DNA from: Thermodesulfovibrionia bacterium
Lineage (GTDB): Bacteria; Nitrospirota; Thermodesulfovibrionia; UBA6902
Direction of reading: 5' to 3'
Assembly (NCBI GenBank): GCA_030646035.1
Contig: JAUSMY010000046.1
Location: forward strand, 73,072-137,071
DNA: 64,000 nucleotides
Position 1 is the first letter of the stretch; every line of letters starts with the position of its first letter. Both the position numbers and the translations under genes were made by a program. The notes beneath the pieces are model-generated. The model searched no databases. It was not told the DNA's origin and was given only the letters and a program-made list of their open reading frames with translations. Shown one piece after another: positions 293 to 48,216 of this stretch.

Positions 293-313
293 TTAATAGT
301 ATGTTTTATGGCA

Positions 314-390
314 GCCCCCTTAGCTCAGTCGGATAGAGCACAGGTTTCCTAAACCTGGTGTCGCAAGTTCGATTCTTGCAGGGGGCACCA
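314..390 (+). tRNA. tRNA-Arg (anticodon CCT)
   Basis: The acceptor stem is GCCCCCT/AGGGGGC. The D-loop is AGCTCAGTCGGATAGAGC. The anticodon stem is CAGGT/ACCTG with loop TTCCTAA, giving anticodon CCT. The T-arm is GCAAGTTCGATTCTTGC, and CCA is encoded. Confidence 0.9.
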
Positions 391-12196: not shown

Positions 12197-15100
12197 ATGA
12201 TAAAAAACATCAAAAAAAGGGCAATACTATTACTTGTAATTTGTTTGGCATTAATATCATCTTTTGCATATTCTCTTGACGCTCCGCACTCACCTGCAAA
12301 CCTGCAGGATTGTGCGACTTGTCATGATTTCTCCAGTTCTAATCCTTATCTTATGACTGACTGGACTGGTGGATATACGATGCAAGATGATGATGACACC
12401 CCATTAAATCACCTATGCAGAAGCTGTCATTACGGAGGCGGATCCGCCCCTGCGCATGATACGCATTCCTATCTCGGAGTTGGATATTCATCATCTACCG
12501 CAAGCCCCTATGGAGGCTGGCAGGTTAGATGCTCCACCTGTCATAACCCTCATTACCAAGATCAGGCCAAGGCATACATTAAGACAGGCGATACATACTG
12601 GAAGGTCAAATTGATTGTAGGGACAGTTATTTCATCTGCCACTTCTTCAACCATTCAGGCATCGGTTAATCCTGCTTGGGCTACTAATGCATATGTTGGT
12701 ATGCATGTTATACCTGATGTCAATACAAAGTACCCTGTTTCATATAAAATTACAGCCAATACATCAGATACTTTAACAGTAAAAGGGCCGCTTAACCCTG
12801 CTACAGGATTACCCGGTAAAACATTTGCAATATTTCGTGGAAAGCTTATCAGGAACCAGATAAAGCTTAATGATATTGTCAATCAAGAGGTTTCACAAAC
12901 AGGCAGAATGACTGTCAGGTTCTTTAATGCTTCCGGCACGAAATCATTTGCAGACGGAGATACAACATATGATGGTATATGTGAGGTTTGTCATAATCAG
13001 ACTTCACACTTCAGAAATTCCGGTTCTGCTCCGGATCAAAATCATACTCTTTTAGGCTCAGGCATCCCCGGTCAAAATTGTACCGGTGCTTGTCATGTGT
13101 CAAGTGACGGGTTCCAGCCGTCAGGATGCAGTTCCTGTCATGGCTATCCAGTAGATACAGGCTCATTGATCTCATTGGATAAAACAGGAGCATCTGCTAC
13201 AAGCGATTCTCAGGGCCCTGGCGCGCATATTGCGCATAACACCAAATTTGAATGTACCAACTGTCACACCGGAGGCATGATTGGCGGTGCTTCTCAGGGT
13301 GATGACCTCATTAACATAGGTTTTTATCTTAATAGTAATCTGGGCGGTAATTATGACGGTACTGCATCAAGAACAGTATTTAATTATGTCGGTTCAGCGT
13401 CTACAACGGTTACAACATTAGGGACTTTGCAGTGTTCAAATTTATATTGTCATAGTACGGGGCAGTCTTCAAACGGGGCTTCTCCTATTCCTTCATCTTA
13501 TGCTGCACCGGCATGGAATGGAACCGCAGTCTGCGGCACCTGTCATGCGAAAGCTGAAGGAGAAGGTCTTACCAGCGGATCTCACGGAGCGCATCTTGGA
13601 ACAGCAGGAGTCAACGGCTGTGCTGACTGTCATACCGGAGCGGCAAACGACGCATCTACATATAATTCAGCTAATCACGTAAATAGATTAATAGATGTTG
13701 CAAACACATATGGTGCCGCAGGCGCTCCGGGTAACGGATACGGCACATGTTCAGCAGCAAGCTGTCATTCCAATGTATATACCTCAGGCACAATAGCGAC
13801 ACCGGTATGGGGCAGCACAGACAACGGATGTTCGGCATGTCATACCACAGTGATAGATGCAACAGGCCCGGCAACAGGCGGCCATGCGTTACACGCCGAG
13901 ACAACCTGTACGCTCTGCCATAATGCAGGCACAACTTCAGCAACCATGCCGTCAACTGAACATGCGGATGGAGACATAGACACAAACAATGTCGGTTATT
14001 CAGACAATAAGGCCAAAGGCAGCATATACACAACATGTTCAACAGCAAGCTGCCATGCAAATGTCTACGCATCAGGAACAATACCAACACCGATATGGGG
14101 CAGCACAGGCAACGGATGTTCAGCATGTCATACACCAGCGATAGACCCAACAGGCCCGGCAACAGGCAGCCACAGCGCACACATGTCTGCAACTGTAAAG
14201 GTTAACGGCAGCAGCATCGTCTGCGTCAACTGCCATAACGCAGGCACGACCTCAGCAACCAAGCCGTCAACAGAGCATGCTGACGGAGACATAGACACAT
14301 CAGCCAGCTTAGGCTACACAGACAACAAGGCTAAGGGCAGCGCACCCACAACCTGTTCAACGGCATACTGTCATACAAACGGCCAGGATGCTTCTGGCAC
14401 AACAATTACGCAGAAGGTAACGGCAACATGGGGAACACCAGCCACATGTACAACATGCCATGACTTCAACGGTTCAATGCAGCCCACAACGGCAAATCAT
14501 ACAACACATATAACACGCACAGGAGGCACATGTGTGCAGTGTCATGATGTTTATGGAGATAACACAACAGAGCCTGATCTTAATTCACCTCTTCATATTA
14601 ATAATGTAATCAACGTTGCGCAGGGCGGAGTTGTAACCTTCGGTTATGATGGCAACGGTTCCGGCAATCATGCACCCGGATATGGTTATGGATCATGTTC
14701 AACGGTCTCCTGCCACGGTGGCGGCGCAACAAGAACATGGGGACAGATGGGTGACGCATGTGAAGACTGTCACTCTAACCTTGGCGGGCCTTCAGGCAGC
14801 GACAGGGGTCATGGTTTCCATGTTCAGACAGCATATATTGGAGCAATTACTGCAAGTTCATACGGTGACTATACCGGCAATGACTGGTACGCATATAGCA
14901 ATACAGGCGGAACTCCTGATATGGGTTGCGGATTCTGTCATCCGCAGTCAGACGCTACACATAATAACGGAGTTGTTAACCTGAACTTTGATCCATCAGA
15001 CACAGGGGCTTCTGCCACATTGAAGTTTAAGAATGATGCTTCCTCAACCTATGCTCAAACAGAGCGTACAAGCGTAACCTGCTCGAGCGTGTACTGTCAT

Positions 15101-15772
15101 AGTGACGGTTACGCAAATCCTGGTTATGGATATCAGACATCTCCTGAATGGTTTCTAGGTAACTTTGTCGGTGATAAGTGTGATGACTGTCACGGCAACT
15201 CACCGGCCAGTAATTCACACGACAGCCATGTTGTTGGCATACATTATGAAGGTGTTTACACAGGTTCAACAGGTCTCGCATCTGCCGGATCAGGTAATAC
15301 AAACGCTCACGGAAGTTCATCATACTCAACAACAATAAGCTGCAGCACATGTCACAACAGCACCGTGACACAGACTGCAAATGCCGGAAACAATACTTGT
15401 ACAATATGCCACACTGATACTAATTCACCGGCAACCGGCAACGAGTTCGCTGTTATATACGCTTCCGCCACAACCCATATTAACGGGACGCCGGATATAG
15501 CGTTCAATGCGATCAATGTTAAGTCAAAGGCTCAGCTTAGAGATAACACGCAAATTATTACTGATCTTGATGAGACATGGGTCAGGTCTGGCGCTTATAA
15601 GGTGCCTGGGTCATATGACCTTGCGAATAACGCTCTTAATACTGCCATAATGTTTGACAGGGTAAGCAGCACATGTTCAACAGTCGCCTGTCATAATGGC
15701 AACTCGGTTAAATGGGGCGATACAGGCATAAGCTGTAATAACTGTCACACAGATATCCCAAACTTAAATTAG
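12197..15772 (+). CDS. giant secreted multiheme cytochrome c (about 28 heme motifs), doubled CX4CH...CXXCH (Geobacter-type paired motif) family
   Basis: An N-terminal signal or anchor is present. I count 28 CXXCH-class motifs by eye, including CX3CH (CTGACH) and recurrent CX4CH ... CXXCH pairs, for example CSTASCH followed about 27 aa later by CSACH. Low complexity and a rich Gly/Thr/Ser content suggest an extracellular beta-rich protein. Confidence 0.9.
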   Translation: MIKNIKKRAILLLVICLALISSFAYSLDAPHSPANLQDCATCHDFSSSNPYLMTDWTGGYTMQDDDDTPLNHLCRSCHYGGGSAPAHDTHSYLGVGYSSSTASPYGGWQVRCSTCHNPHYQDQAKAYIKTGDTYWKVKLIVGTVISSATSSTIQASVNPAWATNAYVGMHVIPDVNTKYPVSYKITANTSDTLTVKGPLNPATGLPGKTFAIFRGKLIRNQIKLNDIVNQEVSQTGRMTVRFFNASGTKSFADGDTTYDGICEVCHNQTSHFRNSGSAPDQNHTLLGSGIPGQNCTGACHVSSDGFQPSGCSSCHGYPVDTGSLISLDKTGASATSDSQGPGAHIAHNTKFECTNCHTGGMIGGASQGDDLINIGFYLNSNLGGNYDGTASRTVFNYVGSASTTVTTLGTLQCSNLYCHSTGQSSNGASPIPSSYAAPAWNGTAVCGTCHAKAEGEGLTSGSHGAHLGTAGVNGCADCHTGAANDASTYNSANHVNRLIDVANTYGAAGAPGNGYGTCSAASCHSNVYTSGTIATPVWGSTDNGCSACHTTVIDATGPATGGHALHAETTCTLCHNAGTTSATMPSTEHADGDIDTNNVGYSDNKAKGSIYTTCSTASCHANVYASGTIPTPIWGSTGNGCSACHTPAIDPTGPATGSHSAHMSATVKVNGSSIVCVNCHNAGTTSATKPSTEHADGDIDTSASLGYTDNKAKGSAPTTCSTAYCHTNGQDASGTTITQKVTATWGTPATCTTCHDFNGSMQPTTANHTTHITRTGGTCVQCHDVYGDNTTEPDLNSPLHINNVINVAQGGVVTFGYDGNGSGNHAPGYGYGSCSTVSCHGGGATRTWGQMGDACEDCHSNLGGPSGSDRGHGFHVQTAYIGAITASSYGDYTGNDWYAYSNTGGTPDMGCGFCHPQSDATHNNGVVNLNFDPSDTGASATLKFKNDASSTYAQTERTSVTCSSVYCHSDGYANPGYGYQTSPEWFLGNFVGDKCDDCHGNSPASNSHDSHVVGIHYEGVYTGSTGLASAGSGNTNAHGSSSYSTTISCSTCHNSTVTQTANAGNNTCTICHTDTNSPATGNEFAVIYASATTHINGTPDIAFNAINVKSKAQLRDNTQIITDLDETWVRSGAYKVPGSYDLANNALNTAIMFDRVSSTCSTVACHNGNSVKWGDTGISCNNCHTDIPNLN

Positions 15773-15782
15773 GTGATCTGAG

Positions 15783-18700
15783 ATGATTAAAATAAATAAT
15801 AGATCTAAGGGAAACGGTAAAATGATGAAGACAAAAAGATTCAATAATACAGGGCCGGTGCTATTCATTGTTCTTTCAATGGTTTTGGCTGTTTTCATTA
15901 CCGGTGCGGCTTTTGCTGCAAATCCAGATCTCCCCGTAGGTCCTGAACAGTACGTAAGTAAAGGCGATATAGCAATAACTCAGGGGGGGACAACCGACGA
16001 GAGCACTATCAGGATAAAGGCTTCCGTCTCCGACCCGGATCTTAATAATGTTCAAATCCAGGTTGAGATAATAGATAGTTCAGCCTCATATACTAATACG
16101 CCGAACTGCGCCAGCAGTTTTGTTTTAAATGAAGAGGTCGCAACCGCATCCTGCACCGGCCTTCAAGTGGGAACGTCATATAAATGGCAGGTAAGGGCAA
16201 ATGACGGCACAGGCACAAGTGCCTGGGTTCAGTTTGGAGCTACAAACCCTGATGTTACAATCTCTTCTAACCGTATATTGCATAACAGCGCTAATCTCGG
16301 TAATGCATCATATGGGGCATGGGGTGTTGACGGTGGGAAATATGGTGAGTTTGTCTGCGCGACATGCCATACAAAATCAGGCTCAACAACAAATATAAAG
16401 ATGGTAAAGCAAACCATCACTTCGCCTAATGCCTCGGATACATGGCCGAACGGCAGTATAAATACAGGATCTATAATCTTCACGTCAGCAACTGGTACGT
16501 ACGCTGATACAGGAGACGCAAGCTCTACCGGCGGTTGGACTGGAGTCTGTAATGTTTGTCATGACAATGCAAATCATGATCACTACTCCTATAATTCATC
16601 TGACGGGCATCTCGCGGGGCAGGATTGCAATGAGTGTCACCGTCATTCAGTAGGTTATAAGGTAGCATGTGATACATGTCACGGACAGCCTCCTATTATG
16701 TCAGACACAATCAACACAATGGTAAGTATACCAGGGACAACAGGCTCAGCTATTGCCGGAGCGCATAATTTACACGTAAACACCAAGTCATATATTTGTG
16801 ACACCTGTCACTATAATAATATTTCCTCTGTTGAGCATAATAATGGCGGTTCACGAGATATATCTATTGGATTTTATATTGCAAGCGGCAGTATTCAGGG
16901 TGGAAATTATAATGGCCAGTCAGGCGTAGGATATGACGCTTTAACCACAAGTGCTCCAACTACCGTAACTACACCTGCAACCGGCGCTAAGACATGCACA
17001 GTTTACTGTCATAGTTCTGTTCAGTCTGCTGATGGAAGCTCAACTGAGCCTGCATTTTATGCGGCTCCTGTATGGGACAGTAATGTAGTTTGCGGCGGCT
17101 GTCATAAAACTAATGCTCCATATGAAATGATCGATACAGGCAGTCATGTTCAACATCTAACAATAAGTGGAGTAAATGGTTGCGGAGACTGTCATACAGG
17201 AGCGTCAAATGATGCTTCATCATATGCTTCTTCAACACATGTTAACTTTTTAATTGACGTAGCTAACTCATATTCTGCAGGCGGCGCCCGAGGCAATGGC
17301 TATGGAACATGCGCTGAAGCGGCCTGTCATAATGATGGCACAACTAATTCTCTAAGTTCTCCTACATGGGGAAACATTACACCGATGTGTTCACAATGTC
17401 ATGGCGCTGCACCGGCAACAGGCAGCCATACGGCTCACCTTACTACAACAGTTAATGGCAGCAGTATAGTCTGCGGAAATTGTCATAAAGATGCGGTACA
17501 GTCAGTGTCACCGCCTTCGTCCCCCGACCATCTTGACGGTAATGTTGACGTAAAGGATGTAGTTGACGGTGACCTTGGCTATCCGGCCAATGTAGCAAAG
17601 CATACTTCGGGTTCTGGATATTCAGCATGTACAAACGCAAGTTGCCATGTAAGCGCATACGGTACCGGTATGATAACCACGGAAATATGGGGAACGACCT
17701 CCACTTGTGGAACCTGTCATACAATAGATGTCAATGGCGCGCCTGCTACCGGAAGTCATGATAAACATCTCGCATCCAGCGCATTATGCGGTAACTGCCA
17801 TAATGGCTCTGTAAAGGATACAAGCGGCGGTACAGCGCATATTGACGGCAACATTGATGTAACAAATAACTATGCATCAAATGTCGCAAAACATGCTGCA
17901 GGCTCAGGATATTCATCATGCTCTTCTATATACTGCCACAGCAATGTACAGGCTCCGGGTGGAGCTTCAGGCGCTACAATATTCGCAACGCCTACATGGG
18001 GCTCAGGCGCTTTGTCCTGTTCAAGCTGTCATACAGATATGTCCACAACGGAAGACCTTACTCTCGGCACACATAAGAGGCATACAAATACACCGGGTGT
18101 CGCGCAATTTGCATGTTCTATGTGCCATGGGATCGGATACTCGTCAGCTACTGTAACTTATCCGCCTCATGTTAATAACAATATTGACCTGTCATTCACA
18201 GGCCAGGCCTCAGGGACATACTACTCTCAGGTAGGATCAAATCCTCCGGGCAATGGTTACGGCACCTGTTCAACAAGTAATTGCCATGGCCGCGGGACTA
18301 AGAACTGGGGTTTTTCCACAGAATCTCCGACATGTGAGAAGTGCCATGGTTCAGCAGATACAGCATCAGCAACCTTAGCATTCAAGGATACTGCCGGCAG
18401 CACAGGAAGTGTATATGCCGGCACACACGTATCGCATATTGTAGGTATACATAACTATTCAATACCTATTACATGTGATAAGTGTCATATTACGCCGACA
18501 AACCCGTCTGATGCTGGTCACAATGATACGGCAGTGCCTGCCGAACTCACTTTTGCCAGCATGGCAACGCATAATAGATTGGTTGGAACAGTATATACAT
18601 CTGCAATGGCGCCGACATACTCTGGAAGTCCGACAAGGCAGTGTTCAAATACTTATTGTCATGCAGGAGTTCGTGCAACTAATGATGGCGGTGACGACCT

Positions 18701-20219
18701 CGGGCCTGATGGATCTGGGCCGAGTCCTGTATGGGGAGACCCTGCTTATCTTGGCGGCTCAGGTTGCGGTAAATGTCATGGAAATCCTCCTGCATATCCG
18801 CATGAGAATTATTCAGCAAACTGTACTGCTTGCCATACACATGTGGCAGGTAATAACATTGGATTTACTGATAAGACCAAGCATTTGAACGGCTCTCTGG
18901 AATGGGATGTTGACGCGTGTATAGATTGTCATTCCTTTGAGAGCAGCAGGCCGCTGATCGGCGCGCATGTATTGCACACTGATCCGGATTATATGCTTTC
19001 CACTTTCCAATTCTCCGGAACTGCTACAGGCGGAACTACAACTACACTCGAAGACACTTCGCAGAGTTGGGTTGTTAATATTTTGGTTGGAAAGTATGTC
19101 AGACTAAATAGCGGTTCAAATATCTATGACCAGGCTAAAATCACTGCAAATACAGCTACAACAATAACAATTGCTGCGGCATTGCCTTTCAGTATCGCAA
19201 ATGGCAACACTTATGAAGTACGCGCTGCCAAGCTGTTGACTGCTGGAGATTATGGTGATCCGTCATGGATATATAGCATATCGTACAAGAATGGCTTCCC
19301 GAAATATGCCTGCGGCACATGTCATCCTATGGATGATCCTACAATACGTAATAACGGCATAGTTGAGCTTGACCTGGATCCGTCACATGCAGCAGCAGGG
19401 ACAGTTAAAACGAAGAACGCTCCGATTGGCCCGTACCCGCCGATGAGCAGCACTGGCGAGTGGTTCCAGCGGACTACTGGAGTGAGTGTTATATGTAATG
19501 GTATATATTGCCACAGCAATGGATATGTGACTTCAGGTACTTATGCTTTTAAGGAGACTCCTGACTGGTACGATGTCACAATTACTGCAAGCGGTACAGT
19601 TACTTCTGAGCCATGGAGTTCTGTTGACAGGTGTGCTCAGTGCCACGGCAACTCTCCTAACACCGGAGGGACCGAGGGCTCGACAGCTCACGCAAAGCAT
19701 GTTGTGGGCGTACATTACAAGGATCTATACTCCGGCACTACCGGTGAGATGAGCGCAACCGGCTCGTCAGGCGCGGCACACGGAGATCCATTGTCCTCAA
19801 CAACAATTAACTGTAATATATGCCATAGCAATACGGTTTCAGACGGGTTTAATGACAAGAACACGATTTGTTCAACCTGTCATACTGCTTCTCCAGAGGG
19901 TACTATGTACGTTAAGCTGGATAATCAATCGCACATTAACGGAACAGTTAACGTATCATTTGCAAGCGCCACTACTATAAAGTCAAGGGCGCAGGTACGC
20001 GACTACATTACGACAGTTACCGAGATCAATAACAACTGGACCAGGACTAACGGGTACAAGGCGTCTAATTCATATGATACTACTGAAGCCAGTAAGAGTA
20101 CTCCGAATTACAGTGCGGGCACATGTCTGACAACTGCCTGCCATAATGGCACCCCGATGGAATGGGAGCAGGCCGGTCCGCTCTCCTGTAATGCATGCCA
20201 TAAGGGGCTGGCACAGTAG
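15783..20219 (+). CDS. giant secreted multiheme cytochrome c (about 31 heme motifs)
   Basis: An aggtga RBS is present. I count 31 heme motifs (CATCH, CNVCH, CTVYCH, CAEAACH and others). It shares an N-terminal NRILHNS...GG(K/R)YGEF.C.TCH module with ORF 20283 and a C-terminal C(S/L)T.ACHNG...C.N/ACH module with ORF 12197. Confidence 0.9.
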   Translation: MIKINNRSKGNGKMMKTKRFNNTGPVLFIVLSMVLAVFITGAAFAANPDLPVGPEQYVSKGDIAITQGGTTDESTIRIKASVSDPDLNNVQIQVEIIDSSASYTNTPNCASSFVLNEEVATASCTGLQVGTSYKWQVRANDGTGTSAWVQFGATNPDVTISSNRILHNSANLGNASYGAWGVDGGKYGEFVCATCHTKSGSTTNIKMVKQTITSPNASDTWPNGSINTGSIIFTSATGTYADTGDASSTGGWTGVCNVCHDNANHDHYSYNSSDGHLAGQDCNECHRHSVGYKVACDTCHGQPPIMSDTINTMVSIPGTTGSAIAGAHNLHVNTKSYICDTCHYNNISSVEHNNGGSRDISIGFYIASGSIQGGNYNGQSGVGYDALTTSAPTTVTTPATGAKTCTVYCHSSVQSADGSSTEPAFYAAPVWDSNVVCGGCHKTNAPYEMIDTGSHVQHLTISGVNGCGDCHTGASNDASSYASSTHVNFLIDVANSYSAGGARGNGYGTCAEAACHNDGTTNSLSSPTWGNITPMCSQCHGAAPATGSHTAHLTTTVNGSSIVCGNCHKDAVQSVSPPSSPDHLDGNVDVKDVVDGDLGYPANVAKHTSGSGYSACTNASCHVSAYGTGMITTEIWGTTSTCGTCHTIDVNGAPATGSHDKHLASSALCGNCHNGSVKDTSGGTAHIDGNIDVTNNYASNVAKHAAGSGYSSCSSIYCHSNVQAPGGASGATIFATPTWGSGALSCSSCHTDMSTTEDLTLGTHKRHTNTPGVAQFACSMCHGIGYSSATVTYPPHVNNNIDLSFTGQASGTYYSQVGSNPPGNGYGTCSTSNCHGRGTKNWGFSTESPTCEKCHGSADTASATLAFKDTAGSTGSVYAGTHVSHIVGIHNYSIPITCDKCHITPTNPSDAGHNDTAVPAELTFASMATHNRLVGTVYTSAMAPTYSGSPTRQCSNTYCHAGVRATNDGGDDLGPDGSGPSPVWGDPAYLGGSGCGKCHGNPPAYPHENYSANCTACHTHVAGNNIGFTDKTKHLNGSLEWDVDACIDCHSFESSRPLIGAHVLHTDPDYMLSTFQFSGTATGGTTTTLEDTSQSWVVNILVGKYVRLNSGSNIYDQAKITANTATTITIAAALPFSIANGNTYEVRAAKLLTAGDYGDPSWIYSISYKNGFPKYACGTCHPMDDPTIRNNGIVELDLDPSHAAAGTVKTKNAPIGPYPPMSSTGEWFQRTTGVSVICNGIYCHSNGYVTSGTYAFKETPDWYDVTITASGTVTSEPWSSVDRCAQCHGNSPNTGGTEGSTAHAKHVVGVHYKDLYSGTTGEMSATGSSGAAHGDPLSSTTINCNICHSNTVSDGFNDKNTICSTCHTASPEGTMYVKLDNQSHINGTVNVSFASATTIKSRAQVRDYITTVTEINNNWTRTNGYKASNSYDTTEASKSTPNYSAGTCLTTACHNGTPMEWEQAGPLSCNACHKGLAQ

Positions 20220-20282
20220 GTTTATGACGAATATGCGAATGATAATAATTGAAAATAGAATACAAAGTGAGGAGAGATCAGT

Positions 20283-23200
20283 ATGGGAAGGATAATATCA
20301 AATAAGGTCAGTAGCATGAACTGGATGGCAAAGATCAGTCTCGTGCTGGTCTTCACTATGTTTTTCAGCATTCAAGGTTGGTATAGTCCAAAAATCGTTC
20401 AGGCTGCTATATCGAAACCGTCTAACTGGGCATCACAGTATGCCGCTGTCGCATATCCTGCCGGCACAATAAATGCCGCTTACACGGTAGCCGCTGGCAC
20501 TAACCGCCTGCTGGTTGTGGCTATATCATCCACACAAACCGCGGTCGGCACTGCGCAGACAGTGAGCAGCATCACTTATGGCGGACAGCCTCTTACATTA
20601 GCGGCCGGTGACGGGTCTTCTACTGTTACCTGGAACCATACATATCTCTATTACCTGAATGAGGCCGGTATACAGGCCGCTTCAGGCACAGCTCTTAATG
20701 TCACCATCTCAGGCGGCACATCTTACTATAACTGGGTTTATGCAGCGGTTTATGCAGGCGTGGATCAGACAGGCACACCTTATACTGATGCCAAAAATTT
20801 TAATAGCGTTGCAGCCTCAACAGCTGTAGGCCCTTTTAGTCCGACCCTGACAATAAATGTAAATGACCAGGCGATAGAGATCGTTAACCTTGCCAGAAGT
20901 ACTGCAAACGTAACTGCCCGCACAATTACCACATGGGCTACAGGCTGGACTACTGCAGGAGTTGCTCCTGCGAGTATTGTTACGAGTGGTCCAACAGCAA
21001 CAATGTATATTAGAGACAGAAATCTGCTGACTACCGCTAATGACGGCTCCCAGCATACAGAGAGCAATGCTGCCGCATTCGATTCAATGACAGCAATGAG
21101 CATTCAAGTTGCCCCTGTCGATTCCACACCTCCGAATGTCAGCACTGTGAATGTGGATCCGACATATACTAATGGCCCCACATCATACACAACGAGCGCA
21201 CCTGTTATCACGGCAATACTTACGGATGCTGAATCAACAGTGACAGGGTGTGAATATACAACGAACGGCTCAACATGGGTTACGGGTGTACTTACAGGCT
21301 CAAGCTCACCATGGACCTGCACCGGAAGCCCGACTGGTCTTACCGGTTCTCTTACACTTAATATACGCGGGACATCTTCAGCACCTGGCTATGGCACCGG
21401 CGTATCACAGGCAAGGACAGTGGATGTTGCTGTTCCAATAACAACTGATAGTTTGGTGTCATTTAATTGGGTTTCAACAGAAGATACTGTAACACTATAC
21501 CCGGTTGATGGCGGTTCTGGCGTTACTGCGGCAACAGGCATATATGGATGTTTCGGCACAGGCTGTACACCGGTTGTTCTTGGCGGGAACACTATGACGT
21601 CTGCCTGCGGAGCCGGCAATGAATGTTGGCTTGATGTTAGGTATTATTCCAAGGACAATCTCAATTGGACTGAGTCTACTGTGACATCCGCTTTTCAGGT
21701 ATTGGTTGACAGAGCGGCTCCTGCTGGACTTGCCGCTTCAAGCCCTGCTGATGAGGCATTAGATCTGCCGACCAGCACTACAGTCGATTCTACAACAGCA
21801 ACAGATAACGGAAGCGGTTCTATTGAATATTATTTTGAAGTTGATACAGATCCGGGCTTTTCCGCTCCTCAGACAGGCGGGTGGCAGGCAGGCACAAGCT
21901 ATGCGCCAACTCTTGCAAGCGGCCCGACATATTTCTGGCGCGTAAAGGCACGGGATGTCATTGGAAATGCAACCGCATGGACAACGCCAAGAAGTTTTTC
22001 AACTCTGGCGTCTTGTACGCGCAATGACCCGACTTTAACACTGGAAACTGACACAGGAGCTGTTCAAGGGTTTATCACTACTAACGGCGGCACAAAAGAT
22101 TACATATTAACGGTTATTAATAATGATAACGGTGGATGCGGAGATACAACTTTTGATTTCACTGTAACAGATACTGATGGTGGCAATAACTTTGATGCTC
22201 CCATATTGAGTTCTTTAATTGCTACTCTTGCGCCGGGGGCGCAGACTATCAGGACAGTTACTGTTACAGCTACTGCCGGCAAGACAACAGGGCAGAGCCT
22301 GACGTATGTAAACTATGACGGTATTGATCCAAATCATCTGAATGTTGTTAATTCCAATAATGTTACGACATTCATAAATGTTGTAGATTGCAATGCAAAT
22401 GTGCCATATCTTATCATTGGGCCTGACTCAGGTAATGTGGCAATCGGTGGAGACATTCAATATACTGTTACAGTGCAGAATACTGACACCGGGTCAGGGT
22501 GTTCAGCAGTAATATATAATATAAATATAGACAGTGAAACAAATTCAGCTAACTTTATTCTCCCTTCAACACTAAGTCTTCCGAGCAAGACTCTCTCTCC
22601 GGGACAGAAAGGCAGTGTTACAATTACAGTAACCTCAAAGATTGGAGCTGTACTTGATGAGATCAATATCACTACGATAGGTGTGACAGCTACCGGTCAT
22701 ACATCTCCTGCTGACGCAACTGCAACAACAACAGTGGGTAACCGTATCCTGCATAACTCAATAAATACAGGCTCAACCAAGTGGTCATCATCCGGCGGAT
22801 GGGGTGTTCCGGGCGGCAGATACGGTGAGTTTGACTGCACGACATGCCATACTACATCTGACGCGACTAACATAAAGAAGATCAGCAGTTCCATTACAAC
22901 GCCTAATCCGGCATCAGGAACATTGCCCGGTGACGGTCAGTCTATTGTTTTTACTACAATCAGCGCAGTCTCAGGAACATCCGGAGTGTTAGGTGATGAT
23001 TCAGATGCTACGAGAACGAGTTCAAACAGGATCTGTGAGGTGTGCCATACATATGATGTCTCTGGAGTGAATGGTGTTGTAGTTCATGCGTATGATCAGG
23101 TGACCTATGTTTCAGAATCTGTAACCAATAATCATCAGAACGCAAATGCAACTGACTGCATAGCCTGTCACAAGCATAAAGTCGGATTTATGCCTCCTGA

Positions 23201-25934
23201 CTGCGGAAGCTGTCATGGTAATCCTCCGGGAGCAGGTACTCCCGCGGGTTCGCTTGCCAGCAGTCCAAATACAACAGGTTCTGTGACTGTTGGAGCGCAT
23301 AATACTCATTACACCACACTTGGATATGGATGTTATACTTGCCATACCGGCTCTGTAATGCCTCATGAGAGTACTGCTTTGCCGGGACAGGGAGATATTA
23401 ATATCGGATTTAGCGCTTTTGGCTCAACATCTGGAACATACAGCGGCCAGACAGGTGTAAGCTATAATGATGTTGCAGGTACCGGAGGCCTTAACTGCTC
23501 AGCCTTATATTGTCACGGAGCAACACTTGACGGCACTTCAACCACTGCTCAGTGGAATGGGACGGTCGCATGCGGTAATTGCCATAAGGCAACAGCAGCT
23601 AATACGCCTACACTTGGCAACCATGCACGTCATGCGGGCAGCACTCAGGTGAATATAGCCTGTTCAGATTGTCACGGAGCTAACGGCGCAGGCGGTGGCG
23701 GACATGTTGGCGGAACAGTACAATGGGGTTTGAATACTTCAAGCGCGCTATTTGGAACGAGCGCACAATACAACTCAGCAGCATCCGGTACTAAGAACAA
23801 CTTGGCTCCGAGTTCATCGTATCAGACATGTACGACACTTTATTGCCACAGTAATGCACAGGGCGCAAGCGGGGTCGGAGTTCCTTCATCATATAAGTCG
23901 CCATTATGGGGCGCAGGAACGCTTGGCTGTGCAGGCTGTCATGTTGATATGACAAGCGCATCTGGCACCGCAAGCCATATTAAACATGCAAATTCATATG
24001 GTATGACATGTTCGAATTGCCACACCGGCTATACAGCAAGCACAACAAACGCTTCTGTACATGCAAACAACACTATAAATGTCACATTAGCTTCTGGCAC
24101 CTATTCCGGAGGCACCACACCGGGTGACCATGCTTCGGGCGGCGGATATGGAAGCTGTTCTACCAATAACTGTCACAGCGACGGCAAGGCAACACCATCT
24201 ACTTATACGAATCCCGCATGGGGCGGCACAGCAGCCTGCGGCACATGTCATGGAGTCGCAGCGGCTACACCGCCTGCGTCTACGCCGCATACCAAGCATG
24301 TCGGCACAGCGGCGAATTACAAGTACGCCTGCTACAAGTGTCATACTAATGTAGCTGTAACAGCGGATTCAACAACATCAGCTACTCTTAACGGCACCTA
24401 TACAACAACACATGTGAACGGCACAAGGAATGTTGACTTTGACGCTTCTTCAGTAGGCGGCTCATGGGCAAGCACTCAGTGCTCCAATACCTATTGTCAC
24501 AGCGCTGGCACAACATTCACAGTTGCTTCAGCAACACATTCGGCAATATCATGGAGCGGTACCAAGGATTGCGCTGGTTGTCATACAGGCGGCATATCAA
24601 CAGGACCGAGCTATACAAACAATTCACCTAAGACCAATACGCACGCACAGCATGTGACCACTTCTGGCTATGTCTGCGTTGACTGCCATAGCGGCACGGT
24701 CACCGGCTCTAACACTATCTCTGATACTTCAAAGCATCTTAACAAGGCTTATGATGTTTCAGGCGCAAGTGTGACTACATATTCATATGTATCTGACGGC
24801 GGCACATGTACGACAAAATGCCATGGGACAAAGACTGTGAAGTGGGGTACACAGACAACTGACGCTACATGTGTGAAGTGTCATGGTGTTGTCGGCACGA
24901 CATCAGTCCAGTATGCTTCGATGACAGCTACAGCAGCGCCCGGCTTTAACGGCACAGGGCTTGACACTAATGGCGAAGCCTCTGATACTGACAGTCAGGT
25001 AGGAGCGCATAATTCGCATCTTAACTCAGTAAGCAATTACAGTAGTGATATAGCCTGTAATGAGTGCCATGCGGTTCCTGCATCAGTCAATGCATCAGGG
25101 CATATAGACTCAACTCTTCCTGCTGAATTGACCTTTGGCACACTTGCCTCAACTAACGTGGGTTCAACCACAGCTCCGAACTATGCAAGTCCGAGCTGTA
25201 CAAATACATATTGCCATTATGGTAAATCATGGGGCGGCTATAGTCCTACTACTGCCAATGCAGCAGTCTCATGGATAAATACAGCTTATCTCAGCGGCAC
25301 GCCAAGCCTTGCCGGTGACTGTAATAAGTGTCATGCGTCACCTCCATCGAGCCATGCCGGCGGTATGGTGATAGCTGATTGTATCGGCTGTCATACACAT
25401 TTGAATAATGACGGAACCTTCCTGGATCCTTCTCTGCATATCAATGGTTTAGTTGACGCTGCCGGCGGCGGATGCGGCGGATGCCATGATTATGATAATG
25501 CCGGATCAAACTATGCCGGCGGTGTCTGGACAGGCGGCACCTGGGGCAAACTTCCCCATAGGGACGACCCGACAAATGAAGGATGGGGCGCGCACGCAGA
25601 GCATATAAATCATATTAAGACAAGGCTTGCTATCACATATGTTCTTTCAACATCAAACCAGACCTTTGGTACAGGCGAGCCTGCCAATGTTTGCGGAACC
25701 TGTCATACTAACACGGGCGGCAACCATTCAACAGGCGGCAGCACAGTACGTTCTATTAACTTTGGCGACGGAACATATAAATACGGCGGAGCTTCAGGCA
25801 CCAGCATCGCCTTGATGAGCTCAACCAACCCGACTTATAACGGTGTGAGCGCGACGTCTTCATTGGTGAATCCGAAGACCTGCTCGAACATTAGTTGTCA
25901 TTACAGCACAACCCCGGTATGGGAAGCATTTTAG
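20283..25934 (+). CDS. giant multiheme cytochrome c (about 26 heme motifs) with an ~800-aa non-heme N-terminal beta-rich region
   Basis: A gaggag RBS is present. The N-terminal anchor is MNWMAKISLVLVFTMFFSIQGW. Roughly 800 aa of Thr/Ser/Gly-rich Ig- or fibronectin-like sequence precede the first heme motif. I then count 26 motifs including CX3CH (CTTKCH) and CX4CH. Confidence 0.9.
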   Translation: MGRIISNKVSSMNWMAKISLVLVFTMFFSIQGWYSPKIVQAAISKPSNWASQYAAVAYPAGTINAAYTVAAGTNRLLVVAISSTQTAVGTAQTVSSITYGGQPLTLAAGDGSSTVTWNHTYLYYLNEAGIQAASGTALNVTISGGTSYYNWVYAAVYAGVDQTGTPYTDAKNFNSVAASTAVGPFSPTLTINVNDQAIEIVNLARSTANVTARTITTWATGWTTAGVAPASIVTSGPTATMYIRDRNLLTTANDGSQHTESNAAAFDSMTAMSIQVAPVDSTPPNVSTVNVDPTYTNGPTSYTTSAPVITAILTDAESTVTGCEYTTNGSTWVTGVLTGSSSPWTCTGSPTGLTGSLTLNIRGTSSAPGYGTGVSQARTVDVAVPITTDSLVSFNWVSTEDTVTLYPVDGGSGVTAATGIYGCFGTGCTPVVLGGNTMTSACGAGNECWLDVRYYSKDNLNWTESTVTSAFQVLVDRAAPAGLAASSPADEALDLPTSTTVDSTTATDNGSGSIEYYFEVDTDPGFSAPQTGGWQAGTSYAPTLASGPTYFWRVKARDVIGNATAWTTPRSFSTLASCTRNDPTLTLETDTGAVQGFITTNGGTKDYILTVINNDNGGCGDTTFDFTVTDTDGGNNFDAPILSSLIATLAPGAQTIRTVTVTATAGKTTGQSLTYVNYDGIDPNHLNVVNSNNVTTFINVVDCNANVPYLIIGPDSGNVAIGGDIQYTVTVQNTDTGSGCSAVIYNINIDSETNSANFILPSTLSLPSKTLSPGQKGSVTITVTSKIGAVLDEINITTIGVTATGHTSPADATATTTVGNRILHNSINTGSTKWSSSGGWGVPGGRYGEFDCTTCHTTSDATNIKKISSSITTPNPASGTLPGDGQSIVFTTISAVSGTSGVLGDDSDATRTSSNRICEVCHTYDVSGVNGVVVHAYDQVTYVSESVTNNHQNANATDCIACHKHKVGFMPPDCGSCHGNPPGAGTPAGSLASSPNTTGSVTVGAHNTHYTTLGYGCYTCHTGSVMPHESTALPGQGDINIGFSAFGSTSGTYSGQTGVSYNDVAGTGGLNCSALYCHGATLDGTSTTAQWNGTVACGNCHKATAANTPTLGNHARHAGSTQVNIACSDCHGANGAGGGGHVGGTVQWGLNTSSALFGTSAQYNSAASGTKNNLAPSSSYQTCTTLYCHSNAQGASGVGVPSSYKSPLWGAGTLGCAGCHVDMTSASGTASHIKHANSYGMTCSNCHTGYTASTTNASVHANNTINVTLASGTYSGGTTPGDHASGGGYGSCSTNNCHSDGKATPSTYTNPAWGGTAACGTCHGVAAATPPASTPHTKHVGTAANYKYACYKCHTNVAVTADSTTSATLNGTYTTTHVNGTRNVDFDASSVGGSWASTQCSNTYCHSAGTTFTVASATHSAISWSGTKDCAGCHTGGISTGPSYTNNSPKTNTHAQHVTTSGYVCVDCHSGTVTGSNTISDTSKHLNKAYDVSGASVTTYSYVSDGGTCTTKCHGTKTVKWGTQTTDATCVKCHGVVGTTSVQYASMTATAAPGFNGTGLDTNGEASDTDSQVGAHNSHLNSVSNYSSDIACNECHAVPASVNASGHIDSTLPAELTFGTLASTNVGSTTAPNYASPSCTNTYCHYGKSWGGYSPTTANAAVSWINTAYLSGTPSLAGDCNKCHASPPSSHAGGMVIADCIGCHTHLNNDGTFLDPSLHINGLVDAAGGGCGGCHDYDNAGSNYAGGVWTGGTWGKLPHRDDPTNEGWGAHAEHINHIKTRLAITYVLSTSNQTFGTGEPANVCGTCHTNTGGNHSTGGSTVRSINFGDGTYKYGGASGTSIALMSSTNPTYNGVSATSSLVNPKTCSNISCHYSTTPVWEAF

Positions 25935-25949
25935 AGTGAGGGGTAGAAT

Positions 25950-28900
25950 ATGAAAATTATAAAAGTGAGGGAGATCAACATGAGAGGGACAAAAGATAAA
26001 AAGACCGGAGGCATGAACTTGAGGAAGCCCAAGATCAGTCTCGTGCTGATCTTCACTATAATATTAAGTATCTTTATGCTTCAGGGCTGGATCGGCTTGA
26101 AATCTGCAGATGCGATGCCGCTGGTAAAGAAGGGCACTATTGTAAAGAACACGGCCACCGGCGCGCAGGCTGTCACCGGAGTGGGGTTCCAGCCCAAGGC
26201 TGTGGTGTTCTGGTGGACGAGGCAGAACACATTTAACGCGAACAACGCCGGCATTTCCACAGGTTACGGCTATGCCGCTGCCTTGCCGACAATCACTCAG
26301 GGATCAGTTGCCGCAGCGGCAAGGGATAATCTGGCGACAACTGACAACAATTTCATGGAGTCAATCACATACTCTATCGTTATACTTAATCCCGGCGCTA
26401 CGGGCACGCCGATGGTTGCCAGGGCCTCGGTCACTGCATTCGGAGCTGACGGCTTCACCCTTAACTGGCAAACCAACGAGGCGCAGGCCAACCAGATACA
26501 CTATATGGCTATCGGAGGCGCGGATATAACGGATGCCAGGGTTGGCACCTTTGCCGGACCTGCTGTAGCAGGCTCAGCAGCGGTCACAGGGGTTGGCTTT
26601 CAACCGGACGCGGTGTTGTTTGTTGCGGGCAATAGGACCGGAGTTACATGGGACACAATTGTCGCTGAGGGCGCGCAGACGATAGGCTTCATGTCGTCTG
26701 CCACATCACAAGCGTCAATAGGCTGGTCTGCCAGAGATGCTCAGACCGCGCTATCAAACGCTCATGCATGGTCCGGGGCGCAGGCCATTACAGGGCTCAG
26801 GCGTAACGCCCTTGACCAACAGGCAGCCTTCACCTCCATGGACGCTGACGGATTCACCTTAAACTTCACACAAACAGGCGGTGCTTCTAATTATATTTAT
26901 TTGGCCCTCAAGGGCGGACTTTTTAAAATGGGCACGTTCAATAAAAACACAGCGGCAGGCGCGCAGAGCGTCACCGGCTTAGGATTCCAGCCCAGCGGCC
27001 TGATGCTTTTAAGCGAGAGCGACAACGTGGCAGCGGCCACGGCCCGCGCCAGTGCCAACCCGGCCTCAAACCTCTCCATCGGCGCCACAGACGGCACAAC
27101 ATCCGGTTCGACATGGATGCACTATCGGTCAATCGCCACAACAGACACCAACACATTTACATATAACACGAATATTATGAAGATGGGCATAAATACTAAC
27201 GCCACTGTAACTAACTACGGCGAGGCCACGTTTACGTCCTTCAACACAGACGGATTTACGATAAACTGGACCACCTCAGACGCCACGGCCCGTAACTTAA
27301 TCTATTGGGCCATCGGCGGGGTACTAGGTGATTCAGTGAATGTCGCAGATGGTACTGACCCAGCGAATGCTAACGCAGGCCGCGGCAGTACAAATAATAT
27401 AGCTGACAGCTTTACGATGGTCGCAGTCAATACCCTGGATGGCCTGGCAGATGTAACCGGTGTTACTTCAAGCTTTACAAACAGTGCAAACATCTCGGGC
27501 GTCAGGCTATATAAAGATAACGGGGTTGCAGGGACATATGAGCCCGGGACTGATACGCTGCTTTCGACCGGAACACCCGGTGCATCAGTAAGCTTTACGG
27601 GCTTTACTGAAAACCTTACAACAACAGCGGCAAACTACCTGATTTTAGTTGATATCGCAGGCGGCGCTACTTTGGCGCAGACAATTGATACCTCTGTAAC
27701 CGCTGTTACGGTTACGTCTCCTGATGTGCAGGGCACTATATCAGACGCATCCAATCCAACAAGGCTTACCATTATTGATCTGCCGCATGAAGATGCAGGT
27801 ACGGCATCAAATACAGCAATAGCTGCAAGTCCTCAGCTTGAAGGCGGAACAGGCATTCTGATGCAGCGTTTTCAGGTTTCGAGCGCAACCAGCAGCGCAG
27901 GCGCGCAGGACAATCAGCTTGAGCTTAACTCTCTCGGCATTGACGACCTCGGCACTGCAACCGGAGCCAGGACCGCAAAGGCGTATATTGATACAACAAG
28001 CTCTGCAACGCTTCCCGGAACAGCGGTGCTCATCGGGACTCTCTCTTCATGGACAGGCGCTCCCACAACGATAACCCTGAATCAGGGAACCGCAGGTGAC
28101 AGAACAGTAACTAACGCAACTCCGAGGTACATATATATTGTCTATGATCTGCCGGCAGGCGCGACCCAGACCGTTCAGTCAAGTATCACATCTGTAGGCG
28201 CTGTCAGCCCTGATGCCGGACAGACAGGCCTTACATTGAACTCAAATGCGATCACACTAAGCGCTGACCCGTCAACTATTACATCATGCGCCGGCTGTCA
28301 TGGCTATGGAGCCACACTTACAGATGGCACAGCGCGTAATGTTCCGGATGGCAAGTTCCCCGGTTCTCATAATAAACATGTAAATACTTATGGCAAGGCA
28401 TGTTCAGTATGCCATGCTGTGCCAGCAACTGAAACAGGCGCGAATTATACACACCGTAACAACACCATTGAGATGTCTGGCTCTATTAACGGAACATCCG
28501 GGGCTGTATATGTTAAAGGCACAAGCTGGACACAGACAACCATACCTGCTGCTTATACGGGATGTACCAACACTTATTGCCATAGCAGCGGAGTAGGTGT
28601 TCTCTCCGGCACAATTCCGTCCAACACATCGATAACATGGGGAACAACCGCTACATGCGGCAGTTGTCATGGCACGGCCTTAGATGATGGCAGGCCTAAT
28701 TACACAAACAATAGCCCTAAACGTAATACGCACGGTGATGGCGCAAGCTATGGCGTTACACACAAAGCTACTGCATGTACAACGTGCCATACAGGTGTAT
28801 CAGGGACTGCAGGTTCATATACAGTTGATCCTGCAACACATAACAACGGGGTATATAACCTGTCTGGGACATTTGGATATACGCAGGCTACAGGCACATG

Positions 28901-30245
28901 CTCAACACCCGGCTGCCACGGTTCATCAACCTGGGGCACCTCACTCGGCTGCGTTGACTGCCATGCCTCGGCACAGGGAACTCGTAGTATTATCACCGGC
29001 GCTTCTGGTGAATTCGGTTTGGCATGGGGACATAAGAAATCCGCACGTGGAACTGTGACCGATGCTGATTGTATCGTCTGTCATCTTGAAGGTGCGTATA
29101 CTTCCGGCGTAGGTTCAGCAGTCGCGAAGACAGCCTATCATTCCGGAGCTCCTAATGGCAACATAGACCTGCGTGATCCTGACGGGGCTGGTGAGACTGC
29201 GATCACAAATAATAGCGGCGGTGCATTTACCTTCACTAAGTACTCGATATCATATGCTGCCGGCTCCCGTACGACGACCTTGGGTAACACAATTCCTGAA
29301 GTTATCACGGTTAAGTTCTGTATGAAATGTCATGACAGTAATGGCGCTACCAATACAACCGCACGATCGAACAACGGCGGTACCGGTACTGCTACACAGC
29401 CGTTTGGCGGCATAAGCACCGGATATTCCGTAATTAACGGCGCTGCAGCCGTTAATGGGCTCATCGATGTAAGCACCCAGTTTGCCGCAGCCAACTCTTC
29501 ACGGCATCCTGTAGGCGCTCCGAACTCGAGGAGGTATCCATATTCAACACGGCTCGCTTCTCCATATAATAATATTGGAACAACAAGGGATGCTAATACA
29601 CAAGTTGGCAATACCGCAACGCCACGTGTCGCGGCAAACAGCGTTGTTCTCGTCTGTGATGATTGCCATACCGTAACTACTGCCGCAGGCTCGTTGCCGA
29701 GCTTAACGAATCGTACTATTACGGCACACGGTACTGCTCAAACAGATAACGTGCGTGGTACATTTATGGTTGCGACTCCTGTGTTGTGTCTGTCATGTCA
29801 TGGTGGGACTACTACTCCAAATACAACAACTGCACAGATCGATACCACCAACGGAGATCACAATCCCGGCTCAGCCTATGCGGTCGGCACGACCAGAGTC
29901 AATAGTTTTATAAGTAATTGCGGATACTGCCACTTTAGCGCTTTAACAACACCGGTCAGACCTATCAAGGCTCAGGATATTCACGGCTTCAATGGGATGC
30001 AGACAACAGGCGCAGCATGGGCATGGGGTACTATATCTGGTATGCGGCCGGTTGCATTTATGCGTAACGTAGCTAATTTTGCAACTGCATCACCTCGTCC
30101 TTATAGTGCGACACTTGCAGGCCCGGGCCAGTTTACCCTTGCCGGAGGTCAATCCTCTTGTGCCGGAACAGGCGATCTTACTAATGGCTCTTGTTCTGGT
30201 CAGACAGGTAAGCATACCCCATACTCACCGGGTGGTTCATACTGA
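25950..30245 (+). CDS. giant cytochrome c (about 12 heme motifs) with an N-terminal region of 3-4 internal ~110-aa repeats
   Basis: A gagggg RBS is present. The anchor KISLVLIFTIILSIFMLQGW is homologous to that of ORF 20283. Internal repeats are built around VTG(V/L)GFQP and GFT(L/I)N(W/F)(Q/T)T. The C-terminal half carries 12 heme motifs including CX4CH (CTNTYCH, CSTPGCH). Confidence 0.85.
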   Translation: MKIIKVREINMRGTKDKKTGGMNLRKPKISLVLIFTIILSIFMLQGWIGLKSADAMPLVKKGTIVKNTATGAQAVTGVGFQPKAVVFWWTRQNTFNANNAGISTGYGYAAALPTITQGSVAAAARDNLATTDNNFMESITYSIVILNPGATGTPMVARASVTAFGADGFTLNWQTNEAQANQIHYMAIGGADITDARVGTFAGPAVAGSAAVTGVGFQPDAVLFVAGNRTGVTWDTIVAEGAQTIGFMSSATSQASIGWSARDAQTALSNAHAWSGAQAITGLRRNALDQQAAFTSMDADGFTLNFTQTGGASNYIYLALKGGLFKMGTFNKNTAAGAQSVTGLGFQPSGLMLLSESDNVAAATARASANPASNLSIGATDGTTSGSTWMHYRSIATTDTNTFTYNTNIMKMGINTNATVTNYGEATFTSFNTDGFTINWTTSDATARNLIYWAIGGVLGDSVNVADGTDPANANAGRGSTNNIADSFTMVAVNTLDGLADVTGVTSSFTNSANISGVRLYKDNGVAGTYEPGTDTLLSTGTPGASVSFTGFTENLTTTAANYLILVDIAGGATLAQTIDTSVTAVTVTSPDVQGTISDASNPTRLTIIDLPHEDAGTASNTAIAASPQLEGGTGILMQRFQVSSATSSAGAQDNQLELNSLGIDDLGTATGARTAKAYIDTTSSATLPGTAVLIGTLSSWTGAPTTITLNQGTAGDRTVTNATPRYIYIVYDLPAGATQTVQSSITSVGAVSPDAGQTGLTLNSNAITLSADPSTITSCAGCHGYGATLTDGTARNVPDGKFPGSHNKHVNTYGKACSVCHAVPATETGANYTHRNNTIEMSGSINGTSGAVYVKGTSWTQTTIPAAYTGCTNTYCHSSGVGVLSGTIPSNTSITWGTTATCGSCHGTALDDGRPNYTNNSPKRNTHGDGASYGVTHKATACTTCHTGVSGTAGSYTVDPATHNNGVYNLSGTFGYTQATGTCSTPGCHGSSTWGTSLGCVDCHASAQGTRSIITGASGEFGLAWGHKKSARGTVTDADCIVCHLEGAYTSGVGSAVAKTAYHSGAPNGNIDLRDPDGAGETAITNNSGGAFTFTKYSISYAAGSRTTTLGNTIPEVITVKFCMKCHDSNGATNTTARSNNGGTGTATQPFGGISTGYSVINGAAAVNGLIDVSTQFAAANSSRHPVGAPNSRRYPYSTRLASPYNNIGTTRDANTQVGNTATPRVAANSVVLVCDDCHTVTTAAGSLPSLTNRTITAHGTAQTDNVRGTFMVATPVLCLSCHGGTTTPNTTTAQIDTTNGDHNPGSAYAVGTTRVNSFISNCGYCHFSALTTPVRPIKAQDIHGFNGMQTTGAAWAWGTISGMRPVAFMRNVANFATASPRPYSATLAGPGQFTLAGGQSSCAGTGDLTNGSCSGQTGKHTPYSPGGSY

Positions 30246-39849: not shown

Positions 39850-39949
39850 TAGGAATTGGCTTACAATTATGTAACAATTTTGTTGTTATGTATGACAGGT
39901 TTGTGTTCTAACTGAATTTATTGCCTTGGGAATTAAAGGAGAACCTATT

Positions 39950-44099: not shown

Positions 44100-44120
44100 A
44101 TACACTGTCTTGTTATATAA

Positions 44121-44156
44121 AAAAGGAGGGGTGGATGAACCGCCCCTCCTTTTTTA
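44121..44156. terminator. bidirectional Rho-independent terminator
   Basis: The hairpin AAAAAGGAGGGGTGG-atgaa-CCGCCCCTCCTTTTTT lies between the convergent pilin gene (plus strand) and secretin gene (minus strand). Confidence 0.75.
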
Positions 44157-44163
44157 TTCAGAT

Positions 44164-48209: not shown

Positions 48210-48216
48210 AGAAAAT

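Follow-up and report, generated by a model that had tools for sequence, protein, structure and literature searches.

A 64,000-nucleotide stretch of a Thermodesulfovibrionia genome (Nitrospirota; GenBank assembly GCA_030646035.1, contig JAUSMY010000046.1), hereafter called the window, carries at positions 12197-30245 four co-directional open reading frames (ORFs), each starting with a Sec-type signal peptide, whose products are crowded with C-Xn-CH motifs, many of them wider than the CXXCH to which haem is canonically attached. The reading that we favour, to which we assign a probability of about 0.82, is that these four proteins (ORF1-ORF4) belong to the CxxxxCH/CxxCH family, as giant multihaem c-type cytochromes that are exported by Sec and composed of tri-haem modules, with System II as the most likely route of haem attachment. 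On this reading, the haem-rich parts would be built of modules of ~100 residues in which a wide motif holds haem 1, and three extra invariant histidines would supply the distal ligands that make all three haems bis-His. Haem would most likely be attached by the System II proteins ResB and CcsA, which are encoded in a cassette with the cytochromes, a PD40 protein, a B12-binding radical SAM enzyme and a LuxE-like protein. With a haem every ~40 residues, the mature proteins would most probably serve as long haem wires, moving electrons through the periplasm or past the outer membrane.

Motif content and order

Translating the four ORFs and mapping their motifs yielded 97 C-Xn-CH motifs, comprising 72 CXXCH, 22 CX4CH and 3 CX3CH, with non-canonical spacings accounting for 25 of the total (26%). 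Shuffling the residues (2,000 shuffles) produced each motif type ~0.3 times on average and at most 3–4 times. An earlier reading made from the DNA letters without database searches (the sequence-only reading) had described heavy use of CX3CH and CX4CH alongside CXXCH, which these counts bear out. Each motif string that it listed was found in the translated ORFs, and both of the CX3CH motifs that it singled out lay where it had placed them (CTGACH at nucleotides 13079-13096 and CTTKCH at nucleotides 24807-24824). Its list of CX4CH motifs needed correction in two respects: CTVYCH (ORF2 residue 405) is a CX3CH motif, and CSTVSCH, CSSVYCH and CSTVACH of ORF1 had been left out.

When each CX3/4CH motif was labelled N and each CXXCH motif c, the resulting strings ran ...NccNccNcc..., with 'NccN' observed 17 times, compared with 3.2 ± 1.6 times after label shuffling; none of 20,000 shuffles of the motif labels reached 17. 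The sequence-only reading had made its claim of a paired arrangement contingent on statistical support for the periodicity, and that support is clear. Because the order is non-random, the pairing is real, but its period is three motifs (~100 residues) rather than two, such that the unit is N-c-c, with three haems, and not a doubled motif. The accompanying claim that each wide motif is typically followed by a CXXCH after about 25–35 residues held in its first part, as 24 of the 25 non-canonical motifs had a CXXCH downstream (the exception being at a C terminus), but the distance was more variable than proposed, ranging from 16 to 46 residues (median 27) and falling within 25–35 residues in only 14 of the 24 cases.

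Haem density was 40–55 residues per motif. Within the haem-bearing parts, the only cysteines outside motifs were Cys1404 and Cys1415 of ORF4, both located after the last motif; the remaining non-motif cysteines were in the ORF1 signal peptide, at residues 109 and 124 near the N terminus of ORF2, and in the N-terminal part of ORF3 that is free of haem motifs.

Membership in a curated family

All four proteins exceeded the cut-offs of TIGR01904 (136.2, 161.3, 119.9 and 34.5 bits for ORF1–ORF4, respectively, with a cut-off of 27) and PF09698 (54.3, 43.4, 43.7 and 28.2 bits, with a cut-off of 21.7), and all four contained the tandem CX4CH-then-CXXCH arrangement that defines these models, as expected from the Geobacter-type signature that the sequence-only reading had recognised. 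The numbers of stretches matched by TIGR01904 (7, 8, 6 and 2) paralleled the numbers of CX3/4CH sites. The proteins also matched models of class III cytochromes c3 and c7 above threshold (PF14522 [c7], 45–88 bits with a cut-off of 24.8; PF14537 [c3_2], 29–48 bits with a cut-off of 25). Paired_CXXCH_1 (PF09699), which had been suggested in the same breath as TIGR01904, is a distinct model, and we rejected it as the family because its single match (ORF1 residues 31–78) scored 20.4 bits, below the cut-off of 20.6; ORF2, ORF3 and ORF4 had no PF09699 match, and TIGR01905 (doubled CXXCH) was absent among the NCBIfam matches reported for ORF1–ORF4.

ORF2 was 100% identical to an NCBI entry from a metagenome-assembled genome, named 'CxxxxCH/CxxCH domain-containing protein [Thermodesulfovibrionia bacterium]'. 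The NCBI version has 1465 residues, 13 fewer than the longest ORF, which fits a start at Met14 (nucleotide 15822); the signal peptide comes after either candidate start (15783 or 15822). Because CX4CH plus CXXCH is the defining signature of a family already curated in TIGRFAMs and Pfam, and already present in the NCBI name of ORF2, the finding in itself is ordinary; the family is large, curated and widely distributed, and the window proteins are unexceptional examples of it. To this picture our analysis adds a tri-haem module that opens with the wide motif, a drift of the motif loop from X2 to X5 that includes an indel origin of CX3CH, and a conserved maturation cassette.

A tri-haem module with variable loop length at its first site

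The repeat unit, ~100 residues long, comprises CX4CH, CXXCH and CXXCH. Its elements are, in order, GYG[ST]-C[ST]xx[YSA]CH (haem 1), P-x-W-G, CxxCH (haem 2), TGSHxxH, CxxCH (haem 3) and H-x-DG-x-ID, and around every wide motif the sequence reads GYG[ST]-C[ST][TN]x[YSA]CH, then after 8–30 residues P-x-W-G, and after a further 4–8 residues CxxCH. We aligned 17 sequences over three units and 66 diverse sequences over one unit. Invariant in these alignments were the cysteines and histidines of the three motifs, one tryptophan, an HxxH element after motif 2 and one histidine after motif 3, except that the first cysteine of the wide motif was only near-invariant (at least 90%) among the 66 sequences because the length of the loop varies. 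Each three-motif unit thus has three additional invariant histidines, the number needed for bis-His ligation of three haems. Overall, ORF1–ORF4 have 59, 69, 62 and 29 histidines for 28, 31, 26 and 12 motifs.

Five orthologues of ORF2 (61–79% identity) retained all 31 motifs in place, with the X residues varying and the C...CH framework fixed. The CTVYCH motif of ORF2 aligned with CSTVYCH and CSNLYCH in two of these orthologues, and at a different CX4CH site one orthologue had a CX5CH motif (CSTAGLCH). Alignment of paralogues placed CTTKCH as a one-residue deletion of a CSTxxCH site and CTGACH as a CXXCH site with one residue inserted, aligned to CN-ECH and CI-ACH. By these alignments, CX3CH is not a separate class but a one-residue indel variant, of CX4CH in two cases and of CXXCH in one. 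That CX3CH and CX5CH are such variants argues that the attachment chemistry tolerates loops of X2 to X5. In 120 homologues we counted 3,208 CXXCH, 961 CX4CH, 135 CX3CH and 5 CX5CH motifs, and haem site 1, tallied across 501 homologous units, was X4 in ~75%, X3 in ~13% and X2 in ~11%. The widened spacing belongs to the fixed first position of a module and is not a scattered anomaly.

A profile of the unit matched 4,715 representatives of 50%-identity clusters, 1,266 of them at E ≤ 1e-30. Some of the matched proteins (P0242, P0371 and others) had lengths of 5,264–5,341 residues and up to 62 unit stretches; such a member would carry well over 100 haem sites on one polypeptide chain.

The haem regions are repetitive and low in complexity (51–57% G/S/T/A/N), a property that could suggest that the periodicity merely records recent tandem duplication of DNA, without selection on the spacing class. 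This explanation seems to us scarcely credible, given that units within one protein have diverged, that the spacing class at each position was retained in orthologues down to 61% identity and in homologues of other phyla at ~30% identity, and that the unit profile recognises so many cluster representatives.

A conserved cassette with System II genes

The sequence-only reading had also stated that a System II haem lyase is encoded nearby, which was correct: downstream of the cytochromes are genes for a ResB-like protein and for a CcsA-like protein with a WWD motif (Table 1), the two components by which System II is recognised, and their linkage to cytochromes is conserved. The ResB of the window belongs to a type for which we found 704 homologues.

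Table 1. Coordinates of the cytochrome genes and neighbouring features in the window.
Feature	Position	Strand	Remarks
NHL-repeat beta-propeller and PKD-domain protein	9310..11682	+	secreted; immediately upstream of the cytochromes
ORF1	12197..15772	+	1191-aa secreted multihaem cytochrome c; 28 motifs (20 CXXCH, 1 CX3CH, 7 CX4CH)
ORF2	15783..20219	+	1478-aa multihaem cytochrome c; 31 motifs (23 CXXCH, 1 CX3CH, 7 CX4CH)
ORF3	20283..25934	+	1883 aa; haem-free N-terminal ~850 aa, then 26 motifs (19 CXXCH, 1 CX3CH, 6 CX4CH)
ORF4	25950..30245	+	1431 aa; haem-free N-terminal ~780 aa, then 12 motifs (10 CXXCH, 0 CX3CH, 2 CX4CH)
PD40/WD40-like beta-propeller lipoprotein	30502..31875	+	lipobox VSGC; between cytochromes and ResB, conserved there
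GIY-YIG nuclease-domain small ORF	31915-32229		104 aa; between PD40 gene and ResB
Short ResB/CcsB-like System II biogenesis protein	32260..33342	+	360 aa; PF05140 45.4 bits (cut-off 24.6)
Four genes: ORF without annotation (189 aa), PMT-like glycosyltransferase, glycosyltransferase family 2 (GT2), B12-binding radical SAM enzyme (496 aa)	33329-37378	-	split ResB from CcsA
CcsA/ResC-like haem-handling protein	37513..38337	+	274 aa; WWD motif WNWDPVEVWS; PF01578 115.7 bits (cut-off 29.9)
B12-binding radical SAM enzyme	38503..39849	+	conserved cassette member
LuxE-like acyl-protein synthetase/adenylate-forming enzyme	39926..41446	+	conserved cassette member; Geobacter counterpart GSU2893
Type II secretion genes: two pseudopilins, secretin, GspF, GspE, PilN-like ORF (481 aa)	43560..51733		directly after the cassette

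In Geobacter pickeringii (locus L002), the gene order is cytochrome, cytochrome, PD40, a 120-residue gene, ResB, CcsA, a 184-residue gene, B12-binding radical SAM and LuxE-like. One metagenomic contig retained this order despite toxin-antitoxin insertions, and in an orthologous locus of Nitrospirae the order from cytochrome to PD40 was likewise retained. Small unrelated ORFs or toxin-antitoxin modules were seen at the corresponding junctions of related loci (L003). ResB and CcsA lie side by side in G. pickeringii, and homologues of the 189-residue and PMT-like proteins, mostly with the GT2 and/or radical SAM genes, come after ResB in five other loci (L005, L006, L008, L009 and L010).

We scanned species-representative genomes for ResB loci of this type and obtained 61, from Nitrospirota, Geobacteraceae/Desulfuromonadales and Myxococcota, of which 41 had at least 5 kb upstream and 47 had enough sequence downstream to be counted. 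Multihaem ORFs containing CX3/4CH lay upstream of ResB on the same strand in 33 of the 41 loci, a PD40 gene lay directly upstream of ResB in 31, and only 3 were missing both the cytochromes and PD40. Downstream of ResB, the 47 loci had CcsA in 31, the radical SAM gene in 34 and the LuxE-like gene in 21.

Between the window and G. pickeringii, the radical SAM enzyme was 82% identical, the LuxE-like protein 80%, CcsA 73%, ResB 63%, PD40 33% and the cytochromes 26–43%. The accessory genes other than PD40 are thus far closer to those of Geobacter, across phyla, than the cytochromes are, which suggests either horizontal transfer or extreme constraint of the cassette. A cassette conserved across three phyla, with identity well above that of the cytochromes beside it, is to our mind the most interesting lead to come from the window; it offers a handle on how cells mature proteins that bind from 30 up to more than 100 haems, and on whether motif-specific System II isoforms exist beyond those of Wolinella.

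Among the cytochromes themselves, the best-conserved segment was the C-terminal ~500 residues of ORF4 (residues 918–1431, window 28700-30245), which was 43% identical to the C terminus of a 1839-residue G. pickeringii cytochrome (positions 2500-8019 of L002). In G. pickeringii its counterpart comes immediately before PD40, a position that in many related loci is taken by a cytochrome ORF with the motif count of ORF4 (10 CXXCH and 2 CX4CH). These arrangements hint at a specific pairing of an ORF4-type cytochrome with the propeller.

Probable haem attachment at the wide motifs

From the conservation described above we infer covalent haem at every site, the CX4CH sites included, and bis-His ligation of all three haems of a unit. 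Several results weigh against our overall interpretation. Searches of the PDB with the ORF1 and ORF2 sequences and with the unit-alignment profile returned only weak, CXXCH-driven matches and no solved relative. AlphaFold2 predictions for a three-unit segment (341 residues, 17 sequences) and a one-unit segment (143 residues, 66 sequences) had predicted local distance difference test scores of 39.6 and 45.2, respectively, and were unusable, and haem-peptide data for the CxxxxCH/CxxCH family were not found in the searchable literature. With respect to System II, CcsA scored 174.7 bits against TIGR03144, just below the equivalog cut-off of 187.6, and the four opposite-strand genes separate the window ResB from CcsA. 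Finally, Pfam and NCBIfam searches of the neighbours, which left ORFs of 160, 189 and 481 residues unannotated, recognised no porin. The low-confidence three-unit model contains one hint, in that it places the CX4CH in the first strand of a beta-hairpin that would end at the conserved tryptophan.

The failure of both predictions, together with the lack of a solved structure or chemical proof of haem at CX4CH in the TIGR01904/PF09698 family, leaves room for the idea that the cysteines of the CX4CH and CX3CH motifs are disulphides or metal ligands and that haem is bound only at CXXCH. Four features of the sequences are hard to reconcile with such a role. The histidine after the second cysteine is invariant at each wide site, both in the orthologues and in the 66 diverse units; the additional invariant histidines number exactly three for the three motifs of a unit; the wide site swaps with CX3CH, CX5CH and CXXCH at homologous positions, as would be expected of a haem site whose loop can vary in length but not of a disulphide; and between the motifs of the haem regions there is no spare cysteine. 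Moreover, attachment of haem at CX3CH and CX4CH is crystallographically established in cytochromes c3 of Desulfovibrio (PMC11492766 and its references 6 and 7), and pipelines that count haems already accept both CX3CH and CX4CH as haem sites (PMC5566968, PMC10734462). We consider the disulphide reading of the wide motifs very unlikely.

Is the lyase dedicated to the wide motifs?

The sequence-only reading had held that the unusual spacings require a tolerant System II (CcsBA) lyase, which is at most a possibility. If the wide motifs carry haem, they might do so without a special lyase, and the neighbouring ResB and CcsA might be an extra general System II copy that is co-regulated to provide capacity for haem-rich proteins. 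We give this possibility somewhat less than an even chance. Three-quarters of the motifs in ORF1–ORF4 are plain CXXCH, and three further TIGR01904 loci (in a Nitrospiraceae genome, G. uraniireducens and G. daltonii) had neither ResB nor CcsA within 10 kb, on which ground we also rejected the idea of a separate lyase at each TIGR01904 locus. The CX4CH sites of Desulfovibrio cytochromes c3 mature through the general System I, and the Ccm system of Escherichia coli accepts CX3CH and CX4CH variants, both of which favour general capacity. The same can be said of the four ResB/ResC pairs of Geobacter, one of which adjoins ppcA and other smaller cytochromes with 3–11 haem sites (PMC2700814). A general copy would be less expected to keep such company as we observed, with CX3/4CH multihaem ORFs upstream on the same strand at the large majority of related ResB loci and only three loci devoid of both cytochromes and PD40, or, when Nitrospirota is compared with Geobacter, to show 63% (ResB) and 73% (CcsA) identity against 26–43% for the cytochromes. 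Precedent for specificity comes from Wolinella, in which dedicated CcsA isoenzymes for CXXCK and CX15CH are encoded beside their substrates.

A more far-reaching proposal is that the short ResB, CcsA, the ~180-residue protein, the B12-binding radical SAM enzyme and the LuxE-like protein together form a dedicated, horizontally mobile maturation system for the CxxxxCH/CxxCH giants, which would include a lyase adapted to wide motifs and a novel radical SAM/acyl-adenylate modification of the cytochrome, the haem or an anchor. We regard this proposal as doubtful. Our literature search on CcsBA with CX3CH or CX4CH, and on the cassette genes of Geobacter, turned up no functional study.

Haem-free regions and wider neighbourhood

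The haem-free N-terminal regions of ORF3 (residues 1–850, window 20283-22830) and ORF4 (residues 1–780, window 25950-28280) had no confident Pfam match; that of ORF4 contains three visible repeats of ~120 residues (GVGFQP...DGFTLNW). These regions may be surface-exposed or binding domains.

Upstream of the cytochromes, the NHL-repeat protein has parallels in the Geobacter clusters (GSU2885 and GSU0617), and an NHL gene adjoins a cytochrome gene in another related locus (L066). A secreted protein of 160 residues is also encoded upstream. On the other side, pseudopilin homologues come after the cassette in L011, L015 and L042 as they do in the window, and the type II secretion set is a possible export route for extracellular cytochromes. 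Export to the cell surface would fit this gene context. Farther away, the minus strand of 52114-60882 encodes a Sulf_transp protein, a TauE/SafE exporter, an FCSD-like flavoprotein and an MMPL transporter, which are unrelated to the cytochromes and fit a sulphur-cycling host, and genes for tRNA-Pro(CGG) and tRNA-Arg(CCT) lie at the start of the window (216-390).

Comparison with known systems

Very large cytochromes rich in G/S/T/A, built of repeats and carrying 20–60 haems, have been proposed as molecular wires in the PCC3 clusters of Fe(II) oxidisers (He et al. 2017, PMC5566968). The window proteins resemble them in size, composition and repeat structure, and in that study too CX3CH and CX4CH were counted as haem sites. 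What defines PCC3 is a porin together with a five-helix inner-membrane protein; neither was recognised among the neighbours in the window, so that a reading as PCC3 or another porin–cytochrome conduit (Mtr, OmbB/OmaB/OmcB) gained no support.

The tetrahaem c3 and poly-c3 cytochromes of Desulfovibrio (class III) are bis-His and low-spin, and in them a CX4CH (in one case CX3CH) binds haem beside CXXCH, as crystal structures show (PMC11492766, references 6 and 7). The Cytochrom_c3_2 and Cytochrome_C7 models of Pfam match the window proteins above their cut-offs. Unlike c3, the window module has three haem sites with the wide motif first, a conserved tryptophan and an HxxH element, and no c3 chain in the PDB matched the window proteins significantly.

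In Wolinella succinogenes, the System II lyases NrfI and CcsA1 serve, respectively, CXXCK and the CX15CH of MccA, and their specificity has been demonstrated genetically. As in the window, a System II lyase gene adjoins the genes of cytochromes with an unusual attachment motif. In the window, by contrast, the association is one of conserved gene linkage, and the CX4CH loop strays much less from CXXCH than CX15CH or a lysine ligand does.

The nearest relatives are the TIGR01904/PF09698 'GSu_C4xC__C2xCH' cytochromes of Geobacter (for instance GSU2887 with 27 haems, OmcN/GSU2898, GSU2899 and GSU0702), which share with the window proteins the curated domain, the CX4CH-then-CXXCH tandem architecture, the size class and the haem density. 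GSU2887, OmcN, GSU2899, GSU0702 and the ResB-like GSU2891 are all present in proteomes of G. sulfurreducens (PMC8691401). The window departs from the Geobacter systems in its host, which belongs to Nitrospirota (Thermodesulfovibrionia) and not to Desulfuromonadia, in having cytochromes only 26–43% identical to theirs, in the ~800-residue haem-free N-terminal regions of ORF3 and ORF4, and in the four inserted genes that split ResB from CcsA. The accompanying genes are nonetheless the same: NHL, ResB, ResC/CcsA, radical SAM, acyl-protein synthetase and GT2. They were tabulated in 2009 by Aklujkar as 'cytochrome c biogenesis gene cluster #3' of Geobacter (GSU2880-2899/Gmet_0571-0601), which contains GSU2887 (27 haems), the radical SAM protein GSU2888, ResC (GSU2890), ResB (GSU2891), the acyl-protein synthetase GSU2893, OmcN, NHL proteins and GT2, and for which it was suggested that each ResB/ResC pair is possibly dedicated to the cytochromes encoded nearby (PMC2700814). 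In gene set and order the window matches the G. pickeringii version of this cluster, with 63–82% identity between the accessory proteins.

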